Source: Aquificaceae bacterium (GTDB lineage: Bacteria > Aquificota > Aquificia > Aquificales > Aquificaceae). Taken from it: 33,963 nt of DNA. The first letter of the stretch is position 1. Every line of letters begins with the position of its first letter. The notes beneath the pieces are model-generated. The model had not been told where the DNA came from, searched no databases, and saw only the letters and a list, made by a program, of their open reading frames with translations. Positions 11,697 through 30,684 of the stretch are shown in pieces. The stretch lies in assembly GCA_037924335.1 (NCBI GenBank), contig JAXSMZ010000008.1:4793-38755 (forward strand), written 5' to 3'. The translations under genes and the position numbers were made by a program.

Positions 11697-12440
11697 CTAG
11701 TTTATCAGCTTGTTTAGGTCTTCCTCCGTTGGTACTCCAGATTGCATTTTACCATTCATACCTATAAAGGTTGGGGTTCCGTTCACACCGAGCTGACTCA
11801 GAAACTGAAGGTTATCCGATATAACTTTTTTGCCTTGTTCACACTGGTTCTTTGAGGTGTAACCCTCTTTTAGCTCTTCAAACCCCTTCTTATCGCAGAC
11901 TAAGGCTACTGACTTTCCAAAGGCTTCTGGATGTATAGGCAGTGGGAAGAGAATTACCTTTATGATAACTGAGTTCTTCTTGGCCCACTCCTGAATTATC
12001 GGTTCGCTTTTCTTGCAGAAGGGACAGTCTGGGTCAGTTATATAATAGATGTACTTTTTGCCTTCACCGTATGTGAAGTTTACATGCTCCTCCAACTTTT
12101 TGAGCACATCTCCGCCGACCTTCATAAACTCCTGCTGGCGTTCTCTTGTGATGTTCTTCTTGTCCTTTAGGCTTAGGATATTTCCAGCTACCACATACTT
12201 TGCAGTGCTATCAGTATAGAAAACAAGGGGTTGAGTCCCTATCTTTACCACAACCTCACACAGACCGTTTATCTCTTTCAGCGGAGAGACAGATTCAACG
12301 GAGAACTCCTGCGGTATGAGCTCTTTTACAGAGTTTTTAACTGTATCCTTCGTTGGACAACTGGTAGCACTTGTACCACAAGAGTATGCAAGAACAAGGA
12401 GCAAAGACCCTAGAGAGTAAAGCTTTCTTTTCCTGATCAT
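11697..12440 (-). CDS. dsbC: DsbC-family thiol:disulfide interchange lipoprotein
   Basis: Lipobox LAYSC, DsbC N-terminal dimerisation domain, TDPDCPFC, FPLPIHP, GTPT. Confidence 0.88.
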   Translation of the reverse strand: MIRKRKLYSLGSLLLVLAYSCGTSATSCPTKDTVKNSVKELIPQEFSVESVSPLKEINGLCEVVVKIGTQPLVFYTDSTAKYVVAGNILSLKDKKNITRERQQEFMKVGGDVLKKLEEHVNFTYGEGKKYIYYITDPDCPFCKKSEPIIQEWAKKNSVIIKVILFPLPIHPEAFGKSVALVCDKKGFEELKEGYTSKNQCEQGKKVISDNLQFLSQLGVNGTPTFIGMNGKMQSGVPTEEDLNKLIN

Positions 12441-15242: not shown

Positions 15243-16574
15243 ATGAAGGTTTTTATACTTTTCATACTTCTATCTTTTCTCTCCCATCTTCCAAACCTCA
15301 ACCTTTATGAGTTTAGGAATGAGGAATCCTTGAGAACCATAGTAGCTTATGAGATGTACCATACAGGAAAATATGGAGAGCCTACAGTTCTTGGAGAGCC
15401 ATACTTTAACAAGCCAACGCTCTTCAATTGGCTTATAGTGCTTTACTCTTATTTCATACCATGGAGCGAGATGACAGCAAGAGCTGTAAGCCTCACCTTC
15501 TTAGTGCTCACAGCATTGCTTCTTCTTTGGTCTTCTCATCACATCACAAAGGATAAGCATGTGAGCTTGCTTGCCACCCTTATATTCTTAACCTTTGGTA
15601 ACGTACTTTTCTTCTATGGATACCTTGCAGAGATAGACATAACTTTTAGTTTCTTCCTTTTTTCCGTTTTTGTACTCCTTTGGCTTTGGTTTGAGAAGGG
15701 GGAAGCTCACTATCTTATATTCTCTGGCCTTCTGTCAGGTATGGCCTTTTTGCTCAAGGGTTTTCCCTCTTACGTATTCTATGTAATAACCCTTCTGACC
15801 CTTAGCATGCTCGGCAGAAGGTTTAAAGAGATTTTCTCGAGGAAAGCCTTCTTATCTTACGCTTTAGCCCTTTTTATTCCCACTCTCTGGCTTTTTACCA
15901 CGGCTAACCCCCACAGATATTTAACTACCCTATTTTTGGAGAGCTTTTCAAGGGTTAGCAACGAAGAAGCTTTTTACCTAAGACCCATTAAACTTATCCT
16001 TCTTACCCTTAAGGACACTTTACCCACAAGCCTTTTCCTTTTGACCTCCCTCCTTATAGCCTTCAAAAACAAAAGCATGAAGATGCCTAAGAGCTTATCA
16101 GTGGTCACCGTTGTTCTTCTTGCCAACTTTACACCATACTTTTTATCAAACAGTGCGGGAAGGTACGTGCTTCCCCTCTATCCCTTTCTTGCTTTGGTGT
16201 CTGCTCACTTTATAAACTCCTACGAAAAAGTAAAGAAGTCCTTTCTCATCATACTACTCATAACAATCCTTCTAAGGATAGCCTTTGGTCTTCTTTTCTT
16301 CCCATACTATACGGAGAGGGAAACTTCAAGAAAAAGAATAGCTATGGATATAATAAAAACAGTCGACCTTTCAAAGCCCATAGCATGCAACTGCTTTTCC
16401 GAACTTTCAATATGTTTATATTTGGGTCTTGCTAAGGGTGAGCCTCTCAGAAAGTTAGATCTTATACCCAAAGCTGAATACGTTATAGAGTGCTCCCCCA
16501 ACAGGTTAGAAGGGTTTATAAAAAGATATAGCTTGAACAAAGATTATGAAGTGTATCTTTTGAAAATAAGATGA
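15243..16574 (+). CDS. ArnT/PMT-like (GT39/GT83) membrane glycosyltransferase
   Basis: N-terminal acidic EE..R motif, PYFNKP.LF.W, multiple TM helices, LLKG, RYVLPLYP. Confidence 0.85.
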   Translation: MKVFILFILLSFLSHLPNLNLYEFRNEESLRTIVAYEMYHTGKYGEPTVLGEPYFNKPTLFNWLIVLYSYFIPWSEMTARAVSLTFLVLTALLLLWSSHHITKDKHVSLLATLIFLTFGNVLFFYGYLAEIDITFSFFLFSVFVLLWLWFEKGEAHYLIFSGLLSGMAFLLKGFPSYVFYVITLLTLSMLGRRFKEIFSRKAFLSYALALFIPTLWLFTTANPHRYLTTLFLESFSRVSNEEAFYLRPIKLILLTLKDTLPTSLFLLTSLLIAFKNKSMKMPKSLSVVTVVLLANFTPYFLSNSAGRYVLPLYPFLALVSAHFINSYEKVKKSFLIILLITILLRIAFGLLFFPYYTERETSRKRIAMDIIKTVDLSKPIACNCFSELSICLYLGLAKGEPLRKLDLIPKAEYVIECSPNRLEGFIKRYSLNKDYEVYLLKIR

Positions 16575-17620
16575 CTTTTATGGAAATCGAACCAGAAGAT
16601 ATATATACCTTTGAGAGGAAGGTTCTTGTGGACATAAGAAGTCCTCAAGAGTACAAAGAATTCCATATACCAAAGGCTATAAACATACCACTCTTTGATG
16701 ATGAGGAAAAAAAGCTTATAGGCATGCTCTACAGGCAGGAGGGGGAACAAAAGGCAAAGGCTGAAGGGTACAGTATAGCCAGTAAAAAGATTGAAAAACT
16801 TTTTGCCAAGTTCAGGTCTCTTAAGGAAGAGTACAAGGAGGTAATAATCTATTGTTGGAGGGGTGGTTTAAGAAGTCAAGAACTGTGCTACGTTCTTGAT
16901 CGGGCTGGTATAGATGTTATGAGGCTTAAAGGTGGCTACAGAGCTTATCGTCAATTTATTCTTTCAGATATGGAAAAAAGACTAAAGGAAATGAACTTCC
17001 TAGTCCTAACTGGAAAAACGGGGGTTGGGAAAAGCAAAATTCTGTCTTTGCTAAAGAGAAAGGGAATACCAGTCATAGATGTTGAAAAGCTTGCTAAGGA
17101 TAGAGGTTCTGTTTTTGGTAAAGTTGGGAGAAGGGAAAGAGTATCCCAGAAGATGTTTGACGCTCTTCTCTATGAAGAGATAAGAGGGCTTAACTCTTCC
17201 CTAGTTTTTATGGAAGATGAAAGCAGATGGGTAGGTAACATTCACCTGCCAGAAGCCCTTTGGAAGAGGAAAGAAATGGGCATCTTTATAGAGATAAGGA
17301 CAGACATTGAGTTAAGGATAAAAAATATTTTGGACGAGTATACGAAGGAAGAGGGTTGGAAAGAAGATGTGATCAGTTCTTTAAAAAAGGTCAGAAAGTA
17401 TATGGGGGAAGAAAATTACAAAAGGGTATTAAACCTGCTTACCGCTGGAGACTATGAGAAAGCTGCCGAGCTCCTCATACAGGAGTACTACGATAGAAGA
17501 TACAAATATGGGGGCAGACCAAAAATCATCTTAGAATACAAAAGTATGGATGAGGTTGTTGAAGAGTTGATGGATATATACAGAGGTATCTCTGAGAGCT
17601 TATCTGCTCTCAATGTATGA
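16571..17620 (+). CDS. mnmH: tRNA 2-selenouridine(34) synthase
   Basis: Rhodanese domain (DIRSP.EY..FHIP.AIN.P, YCWRGGLRS, GGYRAYR) plus P-loop GKTGVGKS, RGSVFG, EDES..VG, YYD..Y. Confidence 0.93.
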   Translation: MTFMEIEPEDIYTFERKVLVDIRSPQEYKEFHIPKAINIPLFDDEEKKLIGMLYRQEGEQKAKAEGYSIASKKIEKLFAKFRSLKEEYKEVIIYCWRGGLRSQELCYVLDRAGIDVMRLKGGYRAYRQFILSDMEKRLKEMNFLVLTGKTGVGKSKILSLLKRKGIPVIDVEKLAKDRGSVFGKVGRRERVSQKMFDALLYEEIRGLNSSLVFMEDESRWVGNIHLPEALWKRKEMGIFIEIRTDIELRIKNILDEYTKEEGWKEDVISSLKKVRKYMGEENYKRVLNLLTAGDYEKAAELLIQEYYDRRYKYGGRPKIILEYKSMDEVVEELMDIYRGISESLSALNV

Positions 17621-19338: not shown

Positions 19339-20496
19339 TTAGTATAGATCACTTTTCAGAAGGCTCTTAGGTATCGGCGGGAGCATTTGGAGCTTTCTAC
19401 CCATTATCTCCTTAGAGTATCTCTCCAGATAGTAAGTTATTGTCTCTACTCTTATCTTTATGCTTCCTGTTGGTTTTGTCTCGTCCAGCTCACCGAACTT
19501 GAAGAACAGCGTTCCCCTACTCTCGACTATTCTTTGCACGGGTGTGAAAGTGGGCTGGTCCATCCCACACTCGTAGCTTGAAAGTCTTATGACGGCCGTT
19601 ATCCAAGGAAATCTTGAACCAAACTTTGCAGCCCATATTATCTCGTTTGTATTGGAGCTGTAAGATGACTTCCAAACGTCAGATATGTCAAAGAAGCTTC
19701 TTATAATGCCCGCCTGTATGTCTTTTCCAAAAAGCCAGCTCAGTATGTCCTCGTCCAACGGAAGGTAGTTGTACCAAAGAACAGGGTATCCATAAGCCTG
19801 AAACTCTGCATCTATATCGTGGCCTATCCCAGAGTCCATATGGTACGGCCTAGCAAGTATGAGTACTGCAGGCCTACTTTCTGATATACACCACTTTATT
19901 ATCTCCCTACTCTTTTTTCTTATTTTCCTGTCAAAATCCTCCAGAGACTTTAATCCCTCTTTTACAGCTCTATTTATCTCTTCGTAAGAAACGTCAAAAA
20001 CATCTTTTATAGATTCATAGAGCTGTTTTGGAATAAGCTCTGGTTCTCCAAAGGTTAAAAAGGGGGATACGTACCTTATGCCCCTTGCGGAGAATTCATC
20101 CCTCTCCTTCAAGAAACCAGCTTTTATATTCTCTGGAGCCATCATAACCCTTGTACAGCTTATAGTATCTAAAACATGACCCTTTAAAAAGGAAGGAAGG
20201 GAGTATATCATGGGGACAAAGAGCACGTTTATATCCCTTGTGAGCAACTCTCCTATGTGTCCAGACAGACACTTTACTGGAAAACAGCTATCCATAGTTA
20301 TCTTACCCTTCCCATAATCTCTGTACTGCTCCTCAGAAGTTTCAGAACTGAAAAGGACCTTCACCCCAAGATGCTCAAAGAAGCTAACCCAAAACTGATG
20401 CGTACCCCAGATGTTTAGAAACCTTGGTATTCCTACCTTTATGTGAGACCTATCAACCTTAGCAGAGTTTCCCCTTCCTTTAAAAAGCCTGAGCAT
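19339..20496 (-). CDS. DUF2229 / acyl-CoA dehydratase activase-related Fe-S subunit (PlsA R1-like domain)
   Basis: VGIPR.LN, SCFPVK..GHI, SC, ARPYH.D, YECGMD, DE....GSIKIRVET. Confidence 0.85.
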   Translation of the reverse strand: MLRLFKGRGNSAKVDRSHIKVGIPRFLNIWGTHQFWVSFFEHLGVKVLFSSETSEEQYRDYGKGKITMDSCFPVKCLSGHIGELLTRDINVLFVPMIYSLPSFLKGHVLDTISCTRVMMAPENIKAGFLKERDEFSARGIRYVSPFLTFGEPELIPKQLYESIKDVFDVSYEEINRAVKEGLKSLEDFDRKIRKKSREIIKWCISESRPAVLILARPYHMDSGIGHDIDAEFQAYGYPVLWYNYLPLDEDILSWLFGKDIQAGIIRSFFDISDVWKSSYSSNTNEIIWAAKFGSRFPWITAVIRLSSYECGMDQPTFTPVQRIVESRGTLFFKFGELDETKPTGSIKIRVETITYYLERYSKEIMGRKLQMLPPIPKSLLKSDLY

Positions 20497-22642
20497 TTTT
20501 TGACCTTTTGAAGGCTTCCTTTTTCACAAACTGTGAGATGTTTGGGAAAGTGCTTTTTATCCTTTCCATTCTTTCCTTTATTACCTTGAGTTCGTTTGCA
20601 TCTTCTACGAGCCCTTTTGGGCATGCGTTGTTAACTATCAGCCTTATCCATCCCTCTTGTAATGGTACCTTGCTCCAAGTTCTTCCCTTACCGCTTGGAA
20701 TTTTTACATCTATGAAGGTTCTCTGGCAGTTTATGGGACACCAATGGCATACTGTATCCTTAGATGTTGTGCTCACGTACTCAAGGTTCTCAACCACATC
20801 AAACCCTATGAACTTTGTACTCCTTGTCTTTTCCCAGTGCTCCAAGGCTATAAGGGAAACGCCTATGGCTCCTGCCTCTCCAGGGTAAGGGTGCACGTAA
20901 ACTTCAGCGTCGGGAACCTTAGACTTTATAAAATCCACCTGAGATTTCACAACTGCTAAGTTCTTATGAGTTCCCCCTTGAAGAAGAAACTTCTTACCCA
21001 CTTCCCTTAGATTGTTTATGTTGCCAGCGTAAACCCAAACGTTCAAAGGTAGAATATGACAAAGGCCTGCAAGTATCTCTTGAGCTTGCCATCCTTTTCT
21101 TTGCTGGTTAACGATGTCACTCTGAAGGAATACACCGCACCCCATAGTAAAGGTGGGTATGGCTTTTGCATCAAAAGCCTCTTTGGCTATATCCTCCAAT
21201 GGAATGCCAAACCTCTCTGCAACCCCCTGAAGGAAAGCCCCATTCCCAGAGGAACACTGGGAGTTTAGCCTAAAATCTGATACAGAGCCATTTCTTAGTA
21301 TCATTATCTTTACGTCCACACCACCTACATCGCATATACAATCTACGTGTGGGAAGAAGTGAAGGCCTGCAGTTGCATGAGCTACCGTTTCAACTACAGC
21401 TACGTCTGCACCCAGCACATCCTTAAGAAGGTCTTTCCCATACCCGGTCACACCAAGGGCAAGGACTCTACCATCACCAAGGTACTCCCTTATCCTTCGG
21501 AAGACCTCCTTTGCATCCTCTATGGGATTACCTTTGCTCAAAGCGTAGCAAGAAAAGACTATATCCTTCTCCGGTGTTATGCACACAGCCTTTGAAGTCG
21601 TTGACCCAAAATCACATCCTATAACAACCTCTTTTGTTCTCCTTACGTTCACATTTACGAACTTAGCATACTTCTTCATGAAATCTTGGAGCTCCTCAAC
21701 GGAACTCACAAGACCTCCTTTACCCTCCTTTAGCTTTTCTTCGTACTGCCCTTCCTCAACCCACCACTTTAGTTTATCCTTACCCTTGTAAACTCCTCCG
21801 TCCTTTTCCTCCATAGCTGTGTAAACGCATCCCAAGCTGGCATAAAAGAGCGAATTCTCTGGAACATACACAAGCCTTTCCATATCCTCATCGGAGAAAT
21901 CTCCCACCCCACTTTCTTTCCAGAGCTTTTTAAGATGGTGTCTCCACGCTTCTATAAGACCCTTAAAGAAAGAGTTGGGTCCACCAAGAAGAAGCACCTC
22001 TGGCATTGGAAGATTGCCCTTTGTGAGCTGGGAAAGGTTCTGATAGACTACAGCTTCAAAGAGGGATGCTATCACCTCCTGTGCTGGAACACCAGCCTTT
22101 ATCAGGGAGTTGACATCTGCCTCTGCGAATATTCCACACTTGGAACTCACTTTGTGTATAGGGTATCCAACATAGCCCATTTGGGATAACTTTCCCGTAT
22201 CTATTCCTAACCTTCTTGCGGATTTTTCTATAAAAGTCCCAGTTCCACCAGCACAGACGTTCTGCATGAAAACTTGCTTGTTCCTTTTCTCCTTTTCCCA
22301 CTTTATGAACACCGTTTTCATATCCTCCCCGCCTATCTCGCTTATAAACCTCACCTTTGGATGGAGCTTCTCAACGGCTGTAGAGACTGCGACAACCTCT
22401 TGAACAAACCTACCATTAAGTAGCTTTACTATGAGCCCAGCTCCAGAACCAGTAAGGTAAATTCTATCCCTACCAGGTTTTAGGCCAAACTTCTCCTCGA
22501 GCTTTGTTAGGAACTCGAGCACTTTCTCAGCTTGCTTTGTGTTATGCCTTTCGTAAGCTTTATCCAGTATGCTTCCACTGTCATCGACCAAAAGGTACTT
22601 GCATGTCGTACTTCCAACGTCAACACCCAAAAACATGATCAA
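20480..22642 (-). CDS. Tandem BadF/BadG/BcrA/BcrD (ASKHA) ATP-dependent activase (PlsA A1-A2-like)
   Basis: Two repeats: GVDVGSTT..TGSG..EIGGED..CAGGTG..CGIFA and GCDFGSTT..TGYG..DVGGVD..CSSGNG..CGVF. C-terminal CHWCPINC...C. Confidence 0.9.
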   Translation of the reverse strand: MIMFLGVDVGSTTCKYLLVDDSGSILDKAYERHNTKQAEKVLEFLTKLEEKFGLKPGRDRIYLTGSGAGLIVKLLNGRFVQEVVAVSTAVEKLHPKVRFISEIGGEDMKTVFIKWEKEKRNKQVFMQNVCAGGTGTFIEKSARRLGIDTGKLSQMGYVGYPIHKVSSKCGIFAEADVNSLIKAGVPAQEVIASLFEAVVYQNLSQLTKGNLPMPEVLLLGGPNSFFKGLIEAWRHHLKKLWKESGVGDFSDEDMERLVYVPENSLFYASLGCVYTAMEEKDGGVYKGKDKLKWWVEEGQYEEKLKEGKGGLVSSVEELQDFMKKYAKFVNVNVRRTKEVVIGCDFGSTTSKAVCITPEKDIVFSCYALSKGNPIEDAKEVFRRIREYLGDGRVLALGVTGYGKDLLKDVLGADVAVVETVAHATAGLHFFPHVDCICDVGGVDVKIMILRNGSVSDFRLNSQCSSGNGAFLQGVAERFGIPLEDIAKEAFDAKAIPTFTMGCGVFLQSDIVNQQRKGWQAQEILAGLCHILPLNVWVYAGNINNLREVGKKFLLQGGTHKNLAVVKSQVDFIKSKVPDAEVYVHPYPGEAGAIGVSLIALEHWEKTRSTKFIGFDVVENLEYVSTTSKDTVCHWCPINCQRTFIDVKIPSGKGRTWSKVPLQEGWIRLIVNNACPKGLVEDANELKVIKERMERIKSTFPNISQFVKKEAFKRSKNAQAF

Positions 22643-24138
22643 ACCCTTCCCATAAGCTTTGCTACATGCATCACATAGTTGGCAGAGGTTCCAGCATAAC
22701 CGTAGTTTGGTACTCTATAGCTTGCCCTCTTTATATGCTTTCTCTTTTCCTCAAATTCTCTTATCTCCTCTATGCTGAGCTTTGTCCTATCCAAGACCTC
22801 CTCAAACTCCATCTTTGCTCTCTTCTTTGCTTCGGTGAGTATCATCTGACACCTAGAAAGAGCGTGAACCTCAGCATCACCCTTTATCTCTGTAGGAGCA
22901 TAAAGTAAGTCTGGATAGTCTCCCATCACCTTTGCCATTGCACCTATGGACATGGTATTGGGAAGGCATCCGTAGGGTGAGAGCTCGCATATCATATGGG
23001 CTTGCTTTTTCTTATAAGCATAAAGGGCTTTACCTATGAGCATGTGACCTTCTCCCCCACCAAGCCTGTAATGAAAATAAGGTCTGGCAAGCTCTTTTAG
23101 AAGCCTTTGGTCTGGAAGAGGGTTGGGAACGTTGTTTAGAGCTTTTCTTAGTTTGTTGTAAACGTACCTGTAAAGGTGTACAAAGAAAAGAACAAACCCT
23201 TTCTTTATATGGTATTTTTTGACAAAATCCTTGTTGTCCTCAAGTTTGAAAAGCTCCATGTTTATAAGGTAGTCCATCCAGACGGCAACTGGCGGTGGAA
23301 CAACCTCAGCTCCTTCCTCTTCCAACCATCTTTTAATGTTGTAGTTCCCATCACCTTCGTGGGTTTGAAGCCAAAACTCCCCAGTTATTTTAACCCTTGG
23401 CTTTACCCTAAGGCGGTCAACCTCTATACCATCCCACAGTTTTCTAACCTCTTTTAGAGATTCCACAAAGTAGTCTGTAAGCACATGCCATACAAGAGAC
23501 CCAAGCTTCTTACCCTTCAATGGTCTATTTTTCAGTTTTTCATAGACCAGTTCCACGCTCTGACGTAAAACGCTTTCCGTTTGCCCAGGGAGCACTTCGT
23601 AGGGTCTTGTTGCGTACTCCATGTCTGTTAATATGTCCCCTATGAACATGGCATAAACAAGACCTAGGGTTAAAGGCATGCTTATCTCAAGCCCCCCACC
23701 TTCAGTAGCTTGTTCCATCTTAAGAAGGTCAAGAAGGAAGATCCTGAAGTTTTTCAGGTTCAAGCCTTCCAACACCCTTTCATAGGATTCGTGATACTGT
23801 CCAAACCTGCAAGGCCCACATGCTCCTATAGTAACGAACACATAATTGTCCACAACTTTCCCTTCTGACCTTTCTAACTCCATGAGGGTTCTGGCTAAGT
23901 TTCCAGCCGTAAAGGTTGTAGGACAGCAAGCCCCAACGTCTATGTACTCCTTTCCAACATCAAGGTCTATCCTTTTGATATCAGGAAGAGGTCTTGCTCT
24001 ATAGCCCATGTTCTCTAAGGAAGCTTCTATAAGTTTTTCATGCTTCCAGGTTAAACCGCCGAACAAAAGGGTAGTTCTTGACCTTTCCTCCTTTGTAAAA
24101 GGTTTAGGTCTGTAGGCTCTGTAATCTATTGCCTCCAT
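22639..24138 (-). CDS. 2-hydroxyacyl-CoA dehydratase/reductase-like Fe-S subunit (PlsR-like)
   Basis: PFTKE, ACCP, GPCRFGQY, RPYE, ITGE, GEG, PYGCLPN. RBS AAGGAGG; ATGA overlap with the activase gene. Confidence 0.85.
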   Translation of the reverse strand: MEAIDYRAYRPKPFTKEERSRTTLLFGGLTWKHEKLIEASLENMGYRARPLPDIKRIDLDVGKEYIDVGACCPTTFTAGNLARTLMELERSEGKVVDNYVFVTIGACGPCRFGQYHESYERVLEGLNLKNFRIFLLDLLKMEQATEGGGLEISMPLTLGLVYAMFIGDILTDMEYATRPYEVLPGQTESVLRQSVELVYEKLKNRPLKGKKLGSLVWHVLTDYFVESLKEVRKLWDGIEVDRLRVKPRVKITGEFWLQTHEGDGNYNIKRWLEEEGAEVVPPPVAVWMDYLINMELFKLEDNKDFVKKYHIKKGFVLFFVHLYRYVYNKLRKALNNVPNPLPDQRLLKELARPYFHYRLGGGEGHMLIGKALYAYKKKQAHMICELSPYGCLPNTMSIGAMAKVMGDYPDLLYAPTEIKGDAEVHALSRCQMILTEAKKRAKMEFEEVLDRTKLSIEEIREFEEKRKHIKRASYRVPNYGYAGTSANYVMHVAKLMGRV

Positions 24139-24213: not shown

Positions 24214-24309
24214 CGGGAGAGTAAGGGAATCGAACCCTCCGAAGGTCGCGCAAGCGACCTCCCACAGGATTTGAAGTCCTGGGGCAGCACCAGCATACCA
24301 AACTCTCCC
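24214..24309 (-). tRNA. selC: tRNA-Sec (anticodon UCA), CCA not encoded
   Basis: 8-bp acceptor stem GGGAGAGT/ACTCTCCC plus discriminator G. Anticodon arm CAGGA-CTTCAAA-TCCTG, long variable arm GGAGGTCGC-TTGC-GCGACCTTC, T arm GAGGG-TTCGATT-CCCTT (8/5 fold). Followed by TTA rather than CCA. Confidence 0.97.
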
Positions 24310-24830
24310 TACCACTTGGGAAGGCACTCTATGCCTTCTCGGATTATAACATTCTTTACCCTTTCCACTATCTCCTCAGCTTTCTTTAGTTTCTTTAAAC
24401 TTTCCTCATCGGAAGATTCTAGCTTTACTAACCAAGACTCATACGGCTGGTTTACTATAATGGATGGGTCTTTTTCGACTGTACTGTTTACCTCAACTAT
24501 CTTCCCACCCAATGGAGTTGGGAATGTAGAAACCTTTTTTCCAGACTCAACAACGGCTAAGTTATCATCGTACTCAAGCACAGTACCCTTTGGTTTTATC
24601 CTTACTGAATAAAGGGGATACACTAAGGAAGCGAGAATTGACATAAAGCCTATAGAATAGACACCCTTTTCCTCTTTTACCCACTGGAAGACCATTCTAT
24701 CTTCGTTTACCCTATAGAGTCTATCCTTCTTTATCACGCAACCTTTTATTACTATATCTTCCATCTTTTTAGCCCAAGAGAGAAGGGGAAGGCTCAAAAG
24801 AAATTTTAAGGTAAAACGTCTACTTATCAT
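24309..24830 (-). CDS. GcvH/LbpA-like lipoyl-carrier protein with a twin-arginine-like signal peptide
   Basis: VESGK98 lipoylation-type motif, TPLGGKIVEVN, PY.SWLVKL. N-terminal SRRFTLK plus hydrophobic stretch ending in SWA. Cys31 and Cys169. Confidence 0.85.
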   Translation of the reverse strand: MISRRFTLKFLLSLPLLSWAKKMEDIVIKGCVIKKDRLYRVNEDRMVFQWVKEEKGVYSIGFMSILASLVYPLYSVRIKPKGTVLEYDDNLAVVESGKKVSTFPTPLGGKIVEVNSTVEKDPSIIVNQPYESWLVKLESSDEESLKKLKKAEEIVERVKNVIIREGIECLPKW

Positions 24831-25588
24831 ATTCCCAATATGTTTCTTTCAAACTTCAGATATCCCCTTTCCTTAGCCCATAGGTCTAAGTAAAGGGTTG
24901 CTATGTCATCAACGTATGGTACAGAAAGACCGTCTATCCTCATGTCTATTATCTTCATGTAAGTGTTACACTTTCTGCAAGCTTGTAACTGTGCGTACGG
25001 TTCTCCTTCGTAATAAAAGTAGTCTATGGTGTTATCCTCGTTGTTGCCACATCTTACGCAGCTTGTTCTATTGTAAAGCCATTGGGTATTGCAAAGAACA
25101 CAGCTTAGATACCTTGAGCCTTCTGTGTCTTCAGAATCCATTACATGGGACAAAGATGGTTTAAATCCACACACTGGGCATCTGTTTTTAAGCCACTGGT
25201 CTTTTTTTATATTCATATCCTCTCCAAGCTTAGCAAAGAAGGGATTAAGAAAGGTAAGGAATAGAAACCTCTCCTCATCAATCCCATCCTTCTCTCTTAA
25301 GAAATCCTCAATTTTCCTATGGAGTTCCTCCTTATCAAGCCTCTCCAACTCTATAGCTTTTTCCCTTAGCCTATCGCTTCCATGCTCAGCGCACAGCTCA
25401 AAAAGCTTATAAATCTTCTTTAGCTCCTTCTTCCAATCGCTATCTTTAAGCCCTTCATAGACTTTTTTCTGGAAAAGAGTCGTTTGAGTAAGAAGGTCGA
25501 GCATATGAGAGACCTCAGAGTGCTTTTTCTTCAGCATGTTTATACGCTCAAGCTGGTATTCCCTCTCCTTCAGTCCTAACAAGCTCAC
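24827..25588 (-). CDS. fdhE: Formate dehydrogenase accessory protein FdhE
   Basis: CPVCG..P, RYLSC.LC..W...R..C..CG, C..C..Y.K, DDIATL.LD. GTG start at 25588 overlaps the sodC stop (25603 is an alternative). Confidence 0.93.
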   Translation of the reverse strand: MSLLGLKEREYQLERINMLKKKHSEVSHMLDLLTQTTLFQKKVYEGLKDSDWKKELKKIYKLFELCAEHGSDRLREKAIELERLDKEELHRKIEDFLREKDGIDEERFLFLTFLNPFFAKLGEDMNIKKDQWLKNRCPVCGFKPSLSHVMDSEDTEGSRYLSCVLCNTQWLYNRTSCVRCGNNEDNTIDYFYYEGEPYAQLQACRKCNTYMKIIDMRIDGLSVPYVDDIATLYLDLWAKERGYLKFERNILGI

Positions 25589-26109
25589 TTTATAACCCCG
25601 CAAGCTATCCTTGGGCCTGCATCCCCTGCAGGGTCAGTCTTATAATCATCTTGGTGGTGATGTATCATTATGGATGTACCACCCTCCTTTAGAAGACTAT
25701 TATCCTTCCCTCTCATTAGAGTTACGAACGAATTAAGCACATGAACCTTTACTCTTCCCTTTTCATCTGTGAATATGTTGGGCATATCCCCTGCATGCCA
25801 TCCATCAGGGTTTAGTAAGCCATGCTTTTTTTTGTAAGGATTGAAGTGCCCCTTGGCAGACGTAAAGTCTGGTGGGTCACACCTTCCAATCTCGTGTATG
25901 TGGAGGGCAAGCTCAGCGTTAGTAGGAAGTCCTGAAGCCTCCAACATTATCAGAACTCCATTACTGGTTTCTATAAAGTTAGCCTTACCTATCCTTTCGC
26001 CCTTCTGATCTATAAGTTCAGCCTCGGCTCTTAGCTCTTTTGTCAAGGCTATAGAAAAGAAAAGGGGGCCGAGGAACAACCCTAACAAAAGGCTGTATAG
26101 GCTCCCCAT
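25585..26109 (-). CDS. sodC: Periplasmic Cu/Zn superoxide dismutase
   Basis: N-terminal hydrophobic signal. Metal ligands in LHIHE, GHFNP, KHG, HAGD and IH; GPRIACGVI. Confidence 0.93.
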   Translation of the reverse strand: MGSLYSLLLGLFLGPLFFSIALTKELRAEAELIDQKGERIGKANFIETSNGVLIMLEASGLPTNAELALHIHEIGRCDPPDFTSAKGHFNPYKKKHGLLNPDGWHAGDMPNIFTDEKGRVKVHVLNSFVTLMRGKDNSLLKEGGTSIMIHHHQDDYKTDPAGDAGPRIACGVIK

Positions 26110-26113
26110 GACA

Positions 26114-26752
26114 CTACCTCCTTATCACCTCTTTAAACCATTTAGGGTGGTGTTTCATAGCCCAAAGGGCAGAAACCTTTCCTGTTATCATGCTTGTAAG
26201 AGATCCAGGGACACCTACCGTACCCATATAAACGTGTACAATGAACCCTGCACCAACCAATATAAAGGCAAGGTCATGGAGCATTATTGATATCCTAGTG
26301 ACTCCTATAGGGAAGGTTTCTGGAAACCACATAAAGATACCAGTCACCAGAAAAACAACGCAACCTATAAAGACCAACCAGCCGTATATCTTCTGACCAG
26401 CATTGTACTTGCCCGCTTCTGGCAGTTTTTCCTCTTCTCCTTTTAGATAGAATTTGACATTTTTCAGCCATACTGTATCATCTGGTGTTAAAAGAAAATC
26501 CTTTGACCATCTGAGGAACATGAAAAGTACACCAATGGAAAAGACTATACCAGACCACGGATGAAGCCATCTTGCAAACTCAGACCCACCCATTATGGGC
26601 AAAAGCCATGAAAACTTGGGAGAGTATATCCCCAATCCAGAAAGAAAGAGGTATAAAAAGGTGATAGCAACTAGCCAATGAAGTACTCTGTCCAATCTGC
26701 TGAACCTTTCTATTTCCATCTCTTCCAAGTGTTTTGTCTCTTCCATTTTCAA
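26114..26752 (-). CDS. fdnI: Formate dehydrogenase cytochrome b556 (gamma) subunit
   Basis: R.LHW, ARWLHPW.G, GKYNAGQK, LHD, IVHVY, GKVS..WA..HHP.W. Start may be 26746. Confidence 0.95.
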   Translation of the reverse strand: MKMEETKHLEEMEIERFSRLDRVLHWLVAITFLYLFLSGLGIYSPKFSWLLPIMGGSEFARWLHPWSGIVFSIGVLFMFLRWSKDFLLTPDDTVWLKNVKFYLKGEEEKLPEAGKYNAGQKIYGWLVFIGCVVFLVTGIFMWFPETFPIGVTRISIMLHDLAFILVGAGFIVHVYMGTVGVPGSLTSMITGKVSALWAMKHHPKWFKEVIRR

Positions 26753-27636
26753 CCCTCCTTTTTACCCGCTTTTATGGGTCCAAAGAGTATGAGCTGTAAG
26801 AAGGCTCCCAAAATGGTAGCCCACAGAACTATAGAACCGAATATCTTTATTGGACCCTTCCAAAGGCTTATCCATGGAGATATGCTCGCTTCCTTTGGAA
26901 GTCCGTACATCTCTGGTTTATCCCCATGGGGAAGAACATATATGTAACCTGTGCCACTCACACCCTTTGGGTCGTATAACTCAGCGTTCTCAAAACCCCT
27001 CTTCTTTAGTCCATCTAATATCTTTTTGGCCCTCATGAGCATCTCTTCCTTGGTACCAAAGCTCAGAGCATTTGTGGGGCATGCTTTAGCACAGGCTGGC
27101 TCGAGACCTGCAGAAACTCTATCTATGCAAAAGTTACACTTCCAGGGCTTGTTATTGGCATCGTACCTTGGTACATCGAAGGGACAGCCTGACAGACAAA
27201 ACTTACAACCTATGCATTTGGAATGGTCAAAGTCCACTATACCATTCTGATACTGGATTATTGCACCAGGGGCTGGGCAAGCTTTAAGACATCCTGGGTC
27301 ATCGCAGTGCATGCATTGGTACTTGGTTATAAACCATGTCACACCCTTCTCGGTTTCTCCCTCTTGAAACCTCATGTACATGAAAAGATTTGGAAGAAGG
27401 CCAGGTCCAGACTGATAGCCCATGAAGGGTATTTTGGATGTTTCTGTAGGTAATGGGGGTCTAAGGTCATGCCACTGAGTACAAGCTGCCTCACACCCTT
27501 TACATCCTATACAGCTTGATACGTCAACGAGTATACATAAGGTATCCGCCTGCTTTACTCCCGAGTCTGGAAGCTTTGAAGCGGACACTCTCCTTAATCC
27601 AAGCCCAACAGTTCCCTCAGTGGTTACTGTGCTCAT
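26749..27636 (-). CDS. fdnH: Formate dehydrogenase iron-sulfur (beta) subunit
   Basis: Four 4Fe-4S motifs (CIGCKGCE.AC, CMHC..PGC..CP, CIGC.FC..CPF, CNFC..C..CP) and a C-terminal TM helix. RBS GGAGG. Confidence 0.96.
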   Translation of the reverse strand: MSTVTTEGTVGLGLRRVSASKLPDSGVKQADTLCILVDVSSCIGCKGCEAACTQWHDLRPPLPTETSKIPFMGYQSGPGLLPNLFMYMRFQEGETEKGVTWFITKYQCMHCDDPGCLKACPAPGAIIQYQNGIVDFDHSKCIGCKFCLSGCPFDVPRYDANNKPWKCNFCIDRVSAGLEPACAKACPTNALSFGTKEEMLMRAKKILDGLKKRGFENAELYDPKGVSGTGYIYVLPHGDKPEMYGLPKEASISPWISLWKGPIKIFGSIVLWATILGAFLQLILFGPIKAGKKEG

Positions 27637-27648
27637 CTTCACACCTCC

Positions 27649-30600
27649 TCATGCTTTAACCTTTTCTATGTTGCATAGAAAACCTTTGTATTCAGGAGTT
27701 TGGGAATTTGGGTCCCATACAAAGGGCGTTGTAAGGTTGGCAAGGCTTCCTTTTATGAAACCCTCAAAGCCCCAGTGTATTGGAAAACCGACAGTGTATA
27801 ACTTTTTGCCGTTAACCATCAGAGGCTTTATCCTCTTCGTTGGTATGGCATGAGCTTGAATGGAACCTCTGGCCGTTGAGACCTTTACAATGTCCCCCTC
27901 TTTTATACCAAGTTCCTTTGCAAGCTCTTCTGGCATCTCTACAAACATCCTACCCATGAGTACAGACGTACCGTAAATATGCTTTGTCCAGTAGTGGAAG
28001 TGTTCCACAACCCTGTAAGTGGTCGCTACGTATGGGAACTTATCTGGAGTTCCAAGAAGGTCCAGGTCAGACTTATATATCTTAACAACCGGGTTATGGT
28101 TTGTCTTTGGATGAAGAATGTTCACGATTGGAGATTCATAAGGTTCGTAATGTTCTGGGAAGGGACCATCAACGAGTGGTGCACAGAAGAGCCTTCCCCT
28201 ACCTTCTGGAAGCATTATAAAAGGTCCGTAGTCTGGTGGCAAGTCCGGCTTTATATCTGGCACATCGTACCCAACCCACTTTTGAAGTTTTTCATTCCAC
28301 CATAAGTACTTTTTCTCAGGACTCCACGGATTTCCGCTTGGGTCTGCAGATGCTCTGTTGTACAGTATTCTTCTGTTAGCTGGCCAACTAAAACCGTATC
28401 CAGGATACACGCCAAGACCTGATGGGTCCGAAAGGTCTGTACCCTTTGCTTTGTTCCCCACCTGTGGAAAGATGCCAGAGTAGAGCCACATACCACAGGC
28501 TGTTGTTCCATCATCCTTTAGGGCAGCAAAACCGGGAACCCTTTCTCCAGCCTTGGCTATCATATTGCCTTTATCGTCCATTAAGTCTGAAAGGGCATAA
28601 CCGTTCATCTCGTGAAGTACTTCCTCTGCGGTTGGGTAGTAAGGATTCTTGAAGTTCCAAGTTAGCTTAAGTATAGGGTCTGGAAACTTACCACCCTCTT
28701 TTTGGTAGAGTGATTTTATCCTCATCCAAAGCTGTCCTATGATCCAGAACTCATCCTTTGCCTCGCCTGGTGGCTCAAGAGCCTTATACTTCCATTTGAT
28801 GACCCTACCGCTGTTGGTATAAGAGCTTTCCTTTTCAGCAAATATGGCAGATGGGAGAAGAAGCACTTCCGTCTTTATTGTCTCTGGGTTTGTGTGGTGT
28901 TTCCAAAAGGCAGCCATCTCCGTTTCAAAAGTATCCACTACAACCATCCACTTTAGCCTGGCAAGGCCATCAACCGTTTTCTTGACGTTGGGATTACTTG
29001 CCAGGATGTTCATGCCAACAGAAACCATACCCTCCATCTTGCCCCTGAACATCCTGTCTAGTATTTCGTCCATAGCTATTACTTTTTCCATCTTGGGGAG
29101 ATAGTTGTAAGCAAACTCGTTCTCTAGTGTTGCAGCATCACCAAACCACGCTTTAAGAAGGCTAACATAAAACTTACCGTAGTTTGACCAGTAGTTCATA
29201 GAAAGGTCAACAGCCTTTGGTGTGTTAGCTTCTATGTGATCCTTTAAGCTCTGCTGTGCTGCAGTTGGGGGCTTTAAATAACCCGGTAGAAACCTTCCCT
29301 CTCCAGCAAGGTCCGTCATACCTTGCACGTTGGAATGACCTCTAAGAGCGTTTATACCACCCCCAGGAACTCCTATGTTCCCAAGCAGCAGTTGGAGTAT
29401 AGCCATAGAACCTATAACCTGCGTTCCCCAAGAGTGATGAGTCCAGCCAAGGGCATAGAGGTGTGTCATAGACTTATTGTGTGCGCTTGTTTCCGCTACG
29501 AGTTTTGCAACCTCAAGAAACTTTTCCTTAGGAACACCCGTTATTTTTTCTACAACATCTGGAGTGTATCTTGAGTAAAACTGCTTCAGAATTTGGAACA
29601 CACACCTTGGATGTTCCAAGGTCATATCCTTCTTAGCCTGTCCCTTTTCATCCAATTCATAACCCCAGAGGGATTGGTCGTACTTTCTCTTCTCAGGGTC
29701 ATATCCAGAGAATAGGCCAGTTTCTGGGTCAAAGCTATAAGTATCTTTGACTATGTACGCTGCATTGGTAAAGTGTTTCACATACTCCTCGTTGTATTTT
29801 TTGTTTTGTATTATGTAGTTTATAAGACCTCCCATAAAGGCTATGTCAGAACCAGGTCTTATCTGAATGAACATATCTGAGACTGCAGCAGTTCTGTTGA
29901 ACCTTGGGTCTATGCATACGATCTTTGTCCCCTTCTCTTGCCTTGCCTTTATAGCCCATTTGAAACCGCAGGGGTGATTCTCTGCGGGGTTTCCACCCAT
30001 GACAAGTATAAGGTCTGCATTCTTTATATCAGTCCATCCATTGGTCATTGCACCCCTTCCGAACCTTGGGGCCAAACTGGCCACAGTGGGTGCGTGTCAC
30101 ACTCGCGCCTGAGTCTCTCGCGCTACAAGCCCCAATGCCACACCCGTCTTTACCCATAAGTATCCCTCCTCGTTACCGATGGTGCTTCCTACAACCCAAG
30201 CTATGCTCTCACATCTGTTCACAACCCTTCCTTGTTCGTCTGTTTCTATGAGTGTTCTATCTCTTGTATCCTTTATCAGCTTTGCCATTCTGTTTAGGGC
30301 TTCATCCCAGCTCAACTCCTGCCATTCTTTAGCTCCAGGTGGTCTATAAAGAGGCTTTGTCAGTCTATGGTGAGAATTTACAAAATCTCTTAGAGTTGCT
30401 CCCTTTGGGCACAACGTACCTCGGTTAACGGGATCGTCTGGATTACCCTCAATATTGATGACTCTTGGTTTTACATTCATTGCACCGTCAGTTAACGTGT
30501 ATATGAGAACACCACAGGAGACAGAGCAGTAAGGACATATGCTCTTTGTCACTTTTGCATTGGAGATCTTCAGGTCCCTAATCCTTGCGTACACTGGTGA

Positions 30601-30684
30601 TAGGTCAAACCCGAGGCCACCAATAAGGCCTGCACCAATGGATGCTCCAGAAAGCTTCAAAAAACCCCGTCTTGTTACCTCCAT
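27649..30684 (-). CDS. fdnG: Formate dehydrogenase-N/O alpha subunit, selenocysteine-containing (1011 aa, Sec196)
   Basis: The track ORFs 30097..30684 and 27649..30084 are in frame and joined by TGA (30099-30097), giving QARV-U-HAPTVASLAPRFGRGAMTN. Tat signal TRRGFLK; CPYCSVSC...C Fe-S motif; RGHSNVQG. Confidence 0.96.
30050..30096 (-). promoter_or_regulatory. Bacterial SECIS element
   Basis: Immediately 3' of the UGA: upper stem GGCCA-GUU-UGGCC preceded by a U, and possible lower stem GCACCC/GGGUGC. Confidence 0.8.

Follow-up and report, generated by a model that had tools for sequence, protein, structure and literature searches.

The window, a stretch of 33,963 nucleotides from a bacterium of the family Aquificaceae, carries on its reverse strand an operon for a selenocysteine-containing formate dehydrogenase (FDH; Table 1). 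The genes run in the order fdnG, fdnH, fdnI, sodC and fdhE, and are followed by a small gene of the H-protein/LbpA type. The earlier note had placed this gene last among the protein genes of the operon and translationally coupled to fdhE, and both the gene order and the overlap were confirmed: in the window copy the ATG overlaps the fdhE TGA as ATGA. Among 32 loci, the start lies at -4 (19 loci), +1 (10) or +2 (3) relative to the fdhE stop, so that all 32 are coupled, and the gene directly follows fdhE in every locus of two locus sets (21/21 and 32/32). It is in turn followed at once by selC, which the earlier note had missed, in 31 of the 32. The variable member is sodC, which is present in 8 of 21 loci, absent from 12 and not covered in one. 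The in-frame TGA that marks fdnG as a selenoprotein gene occupies the same codon in 18 of 18 related loci. Folding energy over 60 nt from this codon showed no SECIS element (z -0.08). Promoter and terminator scans of the window returned counts at the level of shuffled sequence (14 versus 12.0 and 5 versus 7.0, respectively).

Table 1. Features of the formate dehydrogenase operon and of its terminal H-protein/LbpA-type gene, in window coordinates.
Feature	Position	Strand	Remarks
tRNA-Sec (selC)	24214..24309	-	begins at the last base of the stop codon of the H-protein/LbpA-type gene
H-protein/LbpA-type gene	24309..24830	-	173 aa; final protein gene of the fdh operon
Cys169, C-terminal LbpA-type cysteine	24324..24326	-	40/40 homologues
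Lys98, predicted lipoyl lysine, E-x-G-K	24537..24539	-	matched in alignment by the lysine of ESVK in E. coli GcvH
Cys31, N-terminal LbpA-type cysteine, in GC	24738..24740	-	40/40 homologues; aligns with the LbpA cysteine
Met23	24762..24764	-	likely relic of the ancestral LbpA start; possible internal start
Predicted twin-arginine leader, residues 1-20	24771..24830	-	RR codons 24816-24821; cleavage after A20 inferred
fdhE, FDH accessory protein	24827..25603	-	TGA overlapped by the next ATG (ATGA)
sodC, Cu/Zn superoxide dismutase	25585..26109	-	variable operon member
fdnI, cytochrome b subunit	26114..26752	-	TIGR01583 above cut-off
fdnH, Fe-S subunit	26749..27642	-	TIGR01582 above cut-off
fdnG, Tat-signal catalytic subunit	27649..30684	-	TIGR01553 and TIGR01409; in-frame TGA (selenocysteine) 30097-30099

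Several further features of the region deserve mention. A three-gene cluster encoding BadF/BadG ATPase and DUF2229 proteins lies directly after selC (19339-24138, reverse strand); its first two genes also follow selC in locus L001, and in none of the other 20 loci. The window also encodes a tRNA 2-selenouridine synthase (MnmH/SelU; 16571-17620, forward strand) and a DsbC-type thiol-disulfide protein (11697-12440, reverse strand). Within FdnG (27652-30096, reverse strand), residue ~239 is a Cys following ENHP in 17 of 17 Aquificaceae rows of an alignment from which L019 (N-terminal part) and L004 (C-terminal part) were dropped for internal stops, and is Val or Ile in E. coli, Desulfovibrio and an FdhD-bearing relative. 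The fdnG stops or frame breaks of these two loci (L019:850-1434 and L004:3175-5619) may represent assembly errors. One contig labelled as Acidobacteria (L002) holds an Aquificaceae-type operon at 66-83% identity with no selC after the gene, which reflects either mislabelling or transfer.

The product of the terminal gene matches Pfam GCV_H at 107.5 bits, and its AlphaFold model (mean pLDDT 86) adopts the H-protein fold, with 1onl as the best match (E 7e-10). Residues C31, E95, G97, K98 and C169 are invariant among 40 close homologues, the window copy reading ESGK at positions 95-98, which bears out the earlier description of an H-protein-like sequence with an ESxK lysine and a cysteine near either end. 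The closest named proteins are those of Hydrogenobacter (73-74% identity), and the best ESM Atlas matches scored below 0.8 and serve as leads at most. The protein shares its fold and lysine position with GcvH (PF01597; PDB 3a7a, 1onl), from which it differs in falling below the family cut-offs (TIGR00527, 55.7 versus 115.85 bits; PRK01202, 75.1 versus 117), in its higher pI (8.4 versus ~4.0), in its terminal cysteines and in the lack of gcv genes in its operon. With the LbpA1 and LbpA2 proteins of sHdr systems it has in common the H fold, the ESGK lipoyl lysine, the two terminal cysteines and a basic patch before the hairpin (R/K77, K79). The second of the two ligase-recognition patches of LbpAs is acidic here (E86, D88, D89; both patches mapped by our own alignment), and the motif W-[VA]-G-P that follows the lysine in LbpAs is replaced by [RK]-[VI]-[SA]-T-F. 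Identity to the LbpA2 of the same genome is ~32%, and a short insertion before a conserved Trp is common to the present clade and to Aquificaceae sHdr LbpA2. LbpAs, as defined in the accessible part of the source study, are proposed sulfur carriers (PMC6067878). By sequence, the window protein is LbpA-type; it is not filed as an sHdr LbpA because its gene context is an FDH operon rather than an shdr cluster, with no shdr or sLpl-LipS1/S2 neighbours in any of 21 loci. The twin-arginine (RR) leader discussed below sets it further apart.

A tree of 27 rows recovers the clade as monophyletic (100/100) on a long stem branch, outside GcvH (97/95) and weakly as sister to Aquificaceae sHdr LbpA2 (55/46); a quick tree of 70 rows did not settle the placement relative to LbpA2. 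The GcvH/LbpA label given earlier can accordingly be narrowed to LbpA-type; the specific link to LbpA2 is weak. One match at E 1e-30 or better came out of 1.84 billion cluster representatives searched with a profile, and 88 genomes outside Aquificaceae gave none at E 1e-25; the clade is therefore narrow. Four further H-fold genes occur in the genome: a classical GcvH adjoining a gcvP on contig C2, two LbpAs in the shdr cluster of C9, and one LbpA on C4. This last paralogue lies downstream of a class II aldolase-like gene, in convergent orientation to selB-selA (L059:1653-5389, genome G000). As stated in the earlier note, no GcvP, GcvT or Lpd is encoded among the 36 window ORFs scanned; a GcvP-family match, distinct from that on C2, lies ~1.5 kb past the right edge.

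Among 90 Aquificaceae genomes, the intact gene was found in 32 and fdnH in 31, all of which belong to the 32; related genomes in these counts are not independent. The one additional carrier, G081, is 57% complete, and its contig begins inside fdhE. Genome G069, which has no fdnH, retains a broken remnant of the gene (L054:4556-4941) before an intact selC. By comparison selC occurs in 46 of the 90 genomes, 13 of which have neither fdnH nor the H-protein/LbpA-type gene. Some co-losses were whole-operon deletions, because G083 keeps a fragment of fdnG before its selC. The gene thus travels with FDH and not with selenium, and its synteny with FDH, which the earlier note had proposed to survey, is tight.

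The N-terminus of the window protein, MISRRFTLK, agrees with the SRRFTLK segment noted previously. RR is kept in all 32 distinct genomic leaders (loci L001-L053), where it is written by 10 different codon pairs. Differences between leaders fall at the three codon positions as 0.27, 0.17 and 0.41 (n = 1205 codon pairs), and of the alternative frames one is closed in 32 and one in 24 of the 32; judged by this codon pattern, the leader is translated. Database entries open with RR in 49 of 58 cases. Among the nine that do not, the genomic frame shows the leader for four, four were not checked, and P0038, a full-length entry, has a single Arg. Several entries start at the junction Met. Homologues that consistently begin at Met23 and lack the leader, the refuting case named in the earlier note, are thus not what the genomes show, as the genomic frames keep RR where database entries start later.

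Across the family, the residues behind RR follow the Tat consensus RR-x-F-L-K. Among the 49 leaders, F or L stands at +3 in 44, L, I or F at +4 in 46 and K at +5 in 25; 46 have a basic residue in the c-region, and 46 a small-x-small motif. The window leader itself matches the consensus weakly, with F at +2, T at +3 and 11 uncharged residues. Uncharged stretches span 8-15 residues across the set and reach the 13 or more expected of a Tat substrate in 18 of the 49, and three likely Tat substrates of the genome also have 11-12. A TatFind-like rule was passed by 9 of the 49 leaders, and by 12 of the 15 scored proteins from a hand-picked set of 16 likely Tat substrates in the genome; the window leader fails it. 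Residues 1-20 of the model have a pLDDT of ~50. A Met is present at the leader junction in 45 of the 49, and a cytoplasmic form is therefore possible; four leaders lack this Met, and no consistent Shine-Dalgarno sequence was seen by eye before Met23. The genome carries TatC, lipoate ligases, LipA, LipS1/S2-like genes and a DsbD-type gene, and encodes several other redox proteins with RR leaders. Taken together, export of the H-fold protein by the Tat pathway is probable, and lipoylation of K98 is predicted with comparable confidence. The known lipoyl carriers reside in the cytoplasm or in organelles, and a literature search, with subscription journals mostly outside its coverage, returned no paper on an exported H-protein or lipoyl carrier, or on the RR leader.

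The orthologue in Aquifex aeolicus is GcvH1 (aq_1052, UniProt O67151; 56% identity), one of the A. aeolicus proteins GcvH1-5 reportedly tested in a 2018 PNAS study. The O67151 entry holds 143 residues, and the RefSeq entry 154, the 11 additional residues including the first Cys. The genomic frame that contains both (L052:7333-7860, genome G001) opens 32 codons before the O67151 start with an RR leader, K-R-R-T-F-L-E. O67151 thus appears (entries P0210 and P0207) to be annotated 32 residues short, at the cost of its leader and first cysteine. The first two strands of the model fall within the stretch that the entry lacks. A single-sequence fold of the 143-residue entry, run with no alignment, gave an uninformative pLDDT of 35. 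According to the accessible parts of published work, the aq_1052 tag adjoins fdoG/H/I (aq_1039/1046/1049), and GcvH1 was detected by mass spectrometry in soluble extract in two of four runs (PMC10052474). A recent preprint, also available in part, treats A. aeolicus GcvH1 as a probable LbpA and reports that a protein named AqLbpA2_2, described there as having no conserved cysteines, was modified by none of the tested ligases, among which was no A. aeolicus ligase (bioRxiv 10.64898/2026.10.01.755906). All four LbpA-type frames of G001 carry both cysteines, and for this reason AqLbpA2_2 is probably the truncated O67151 entry. The absence of 32 N-terminal residues would therefore explain an LbpA that lacks its cysteines and stays unlipoylated, and earlier tests likely used the truncated A. 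aeolicus protein; unless truncation is the explanation, the result counts against lipoylation. The accessible literature on GcvH1 makes no mention of a leader or of a role with FDH. The earlier note, which knew of no described role of this kind, did not take into account that the orthologue is a studied protein.

A separate, distant family of H-proteins with RR leaders was found in Dehalococcoidia. Protein P0120 and its relatives share with the Aquificaceae protein an H domain with the invariant lysine behind an RR leader; they differ in having a lipobox cysteine and a Thr-rich linker, in lacking the C-terminal cysteine, and in their lipB, lipA, DsbD-type and ars-type neighbours. Of 54 loci returned, 17 were inspected and 14 proved to hold family members. 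A lipB-like gene lies directly downstream in five, three of which have a lipA-like gene as well, and three loci show a DsbD-type gene upstream; Pfam/NCBIfam models were applied to four of the lipB-like genes, to one of the lipA-like and to two of the DsbD-type. The five loci with lipB (and lipA) after the RR-lipoprotein gene are L090:6710-9359, L091, L093:985-4505, L094 and L096, a set whose upstream genes include one of the DsbD/CcdA type and a small, unnamed one that resembles lipoprotein genes. In L090, genes for ArsR and ArsP lie near the H-protein gene, and L089:608-2101 contains a tandem pair of H-protein genes with RR leaders, after which comes a gene for a MauE/DoxX-family membrane protein. 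In the 27-row tree the P0120 family branches next to GcvH, apart from the Aquificaceae clade. By analogy, these loci suggest that genes for lipoylation can be found alongside that of an H-protein which carries export signals. No paper on this family was found in the literature search.

The loss of the terminal sulfido ligand in air is a main limit on the use of metal-dependent FDHs for CO2 reduction. The Desulfovibrio FdhAB enzyme is active without FdhD, the sulfurtransferase that serves FDHs. The FdhD domain (PF02634) was found in only 2 of the 90 Aquificaceae genomes, by a search for which 8 of 14 controls were positive, and has no match in the genome of the window. FdhD is absent from 29 of the 31 fdnH-bearing genomes, and in the one inspected of the two carriers it follows a gene for an FdhF-type FDH different from FdnG. 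By contrast, three genomes from a different family of the class encode an FdnG-like enzyme, all with FdhD and none with the H-protein, a comparison limited to these three genomes and to a more distant FDH (~52% identity). The fdhD gene of G175 directly follows fdhE, in the very slot that the H-protein/LbpA-type gene occupies in Aquificaceae. FdhD and FdsC would share with the window protein its proposed task, while being unrelated to it in sequence and fold; FdhD, moreover, is cytoplasmic and binds the free cofactor. As far as the accessible text of a 2026 review extends, FdhD is required by FDH-N, FDH-O and FDH-H of E. coli alike, exposure to O2 removes the sulfido ligand, and bacteria have no identified system that repairs desulfo molybdoenzymes in vivo (PMC13653126). 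Resulfuration in vitro requires sulfide together with a reductant, according to the available part of a separate study (PMC12140954). Published text on FDHs independent of FdhD yielded nothing usable in the accessible literature, and PMC6239281 and bioRxiv 2022.01.18.476765 added nothing decisive.

The best, if tentative, explanation of these observations is an exported lipoyl/dithiol carrier from which the sulfido ligand of FdnG would receive sulfur and reductant, a reading that is itself considerably less probable than the export and lipoylation on which it builds. K98 would be lipoylated in the cytoplasm and the folded carrier exported by Tat to the periplasm. There it would contact FdnG and, taking the place of the missing FdhD, provide the sulfur and the reducing power with which the terminal sulfido ligand on the Mo/W centre is fitted or renewed. 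The lipoyl arm and the cysteine pair could between them provide the sulfide and the reductant. Reloading would draw on sulfide or polysulfide in the periplasm, the electrons coming either from a protein of the DsbD/CcdA type or directly from FDH; this route, the FdnG contact and the sulfur transfer are inferred. Counted in favour are the presence of the gene in all 31 fdnH-bearing genomes, the rarity of FdhD, the sodC found in 8 of 21 operons, the TatC, lipoylation and DsbD-type genes of the genome, and the Dehalococcoidia RR-lipoprotein H-proteins encoded beside lipB and lipA. Against it stand the short hydrophobic stretch, P0038, the retained Met23, the acidic second patch, the unmodified AqLbpA2_2, the buried position of the FdnG site and the FdhD-independent activity of Desulfovibrio FdhAB. 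Complex prediction for the mature protein with FdnG, supplied in two pieces with domain IV omitted, gave no verdict (score 0.00). Finally, FdhD is described, in the accessible text, as acting on the free cofactor in the cytoplasm (PMC13653126).

This last point bears on a less probable alternative, namely that the protein replaces FdhD within the cytoplasm, either as a product begun at Met23 or held by its leader at the membrane or at FdhE or the Tat machinery, and sulfurates the cofactor before FdnGH is exported. The absence of FdhD, whose chemistry is cytoplasmic, would be explained by this route, which also accommodates the retained Met23, the short h-region, the coupling of the gene to fdhE and, from a partly available source, the LbpA that follows cytoplasmic FDH genes in Roseovarius mucosus. 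It does not account for a leader in which RR is constant across 32 distinct sequences and 10 codon pairs, with F/L, L/I and K behind it, and in which the basic c-region residue and small-x-small motif recur in 46 of 49 cases; the four leaders with no junction Met and the lack, by eye, of a consistent Shine-Dalgarno sequence before Met23 also speak against it. The periplasmic and cytoplasmic forms of FdhD replacement together hold about half of the overall probability.

An exported lipoyl or dithiol antioxidant, which would reduce oxidised selenocysteine or peroxides around FDH alongside SodC and donate no sulfur, is improbable to a similar degree. Its appeal lies in the sodC shared by 8 of 21 operons and in the DsbD/CcdA-type genes that adjoin the exported H-proteins of Dehalococcoidia, yet it leaves the absence of FdhD in 29 of 31 genomes unexplained, and sodC is dispensable to the operon where the H-protein/LbpA-type gene is not. 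The cysteine pair of Desulfovibrio FdhA acts as an allosteric redox switch; an equivalent target was sought on the window FdnG and rejected, since the pair is absent there. The available part of the preprint does propose a GcvH-like protein as electron donor to OsmC (bioRxiv 10.64898/2026.10.01.755906).

There is less to commend an exported but unlipoylated H-fold accessory, in which C31 and C169 form a structural or redox disulfide and the protein binds or stabilises FdnGH. The mixed surface charge, the long stem branch, the altered motif after the lysine and the failure of tested ligases to modify the probable orthologue are consistent with it. Nevertheless, all 40 homologues keep E95, G97 and K98, and the protein tested was, from what the partly accessible preprint describes, probably the 143-residue entry without its first two strands, with A. 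aeolicus ligases untried. Still less probable is a respiratory shuttle between formate and sulfur, likened to Sud of Wolinella, in which the carrier would bind periplasmic polysulfide for reduction by FDH-derived electrons. LbpA ancestry, the sHdr cluster and the several RR-leader redox proteins of the genome agree with such a role; however, the electrons of FdnGHI already pass through FdnI to quinone, and the window's operon has no sulfur reductase gene. That the protein is simply the H protein of glycine cleavage, or that it carries selenium for selenocysteine synthesis (the earlier note had allowed for an S/Se carrier), can be dismissed as highly improbable, for despite the database name GcvH and the adjoining selC, it scores far below the TIGR00527 cut-off and lies outside the GcvH clade, a classical GcvH sits beside gcvP on C2, and 13 genomes keep selC without the gene.

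The protein of these hot-spring Aquificaceae is conserved and apparently new to the literature: a carrier of the LbpA type, preceded by an RR leader that is translated, whose gene has become fixed in the FDH operon of the family. The broader proposal, that a lipoylated exported protein rebuilds the oxygen-labile sulfido ligand of FDH in place and that exported lipoyl carriers arose twice, in Aquificaceae and in Dehalococcoidia, is advanced with still more reserve than the sulfur-donor reading itself. If true, it would amount to a lipoyl protein outside the cytoplasm and, at the same time, to a bacterial system that repairs a desulfo molybdoenzyme in vivo. Such an exported carrier would extend lipoate chemistry to the periplasm, and the Aquificaceae H-protein/LbpA-type clade offers a direct test of periplasmic lipoate and of desulfo-FDH repair alike.
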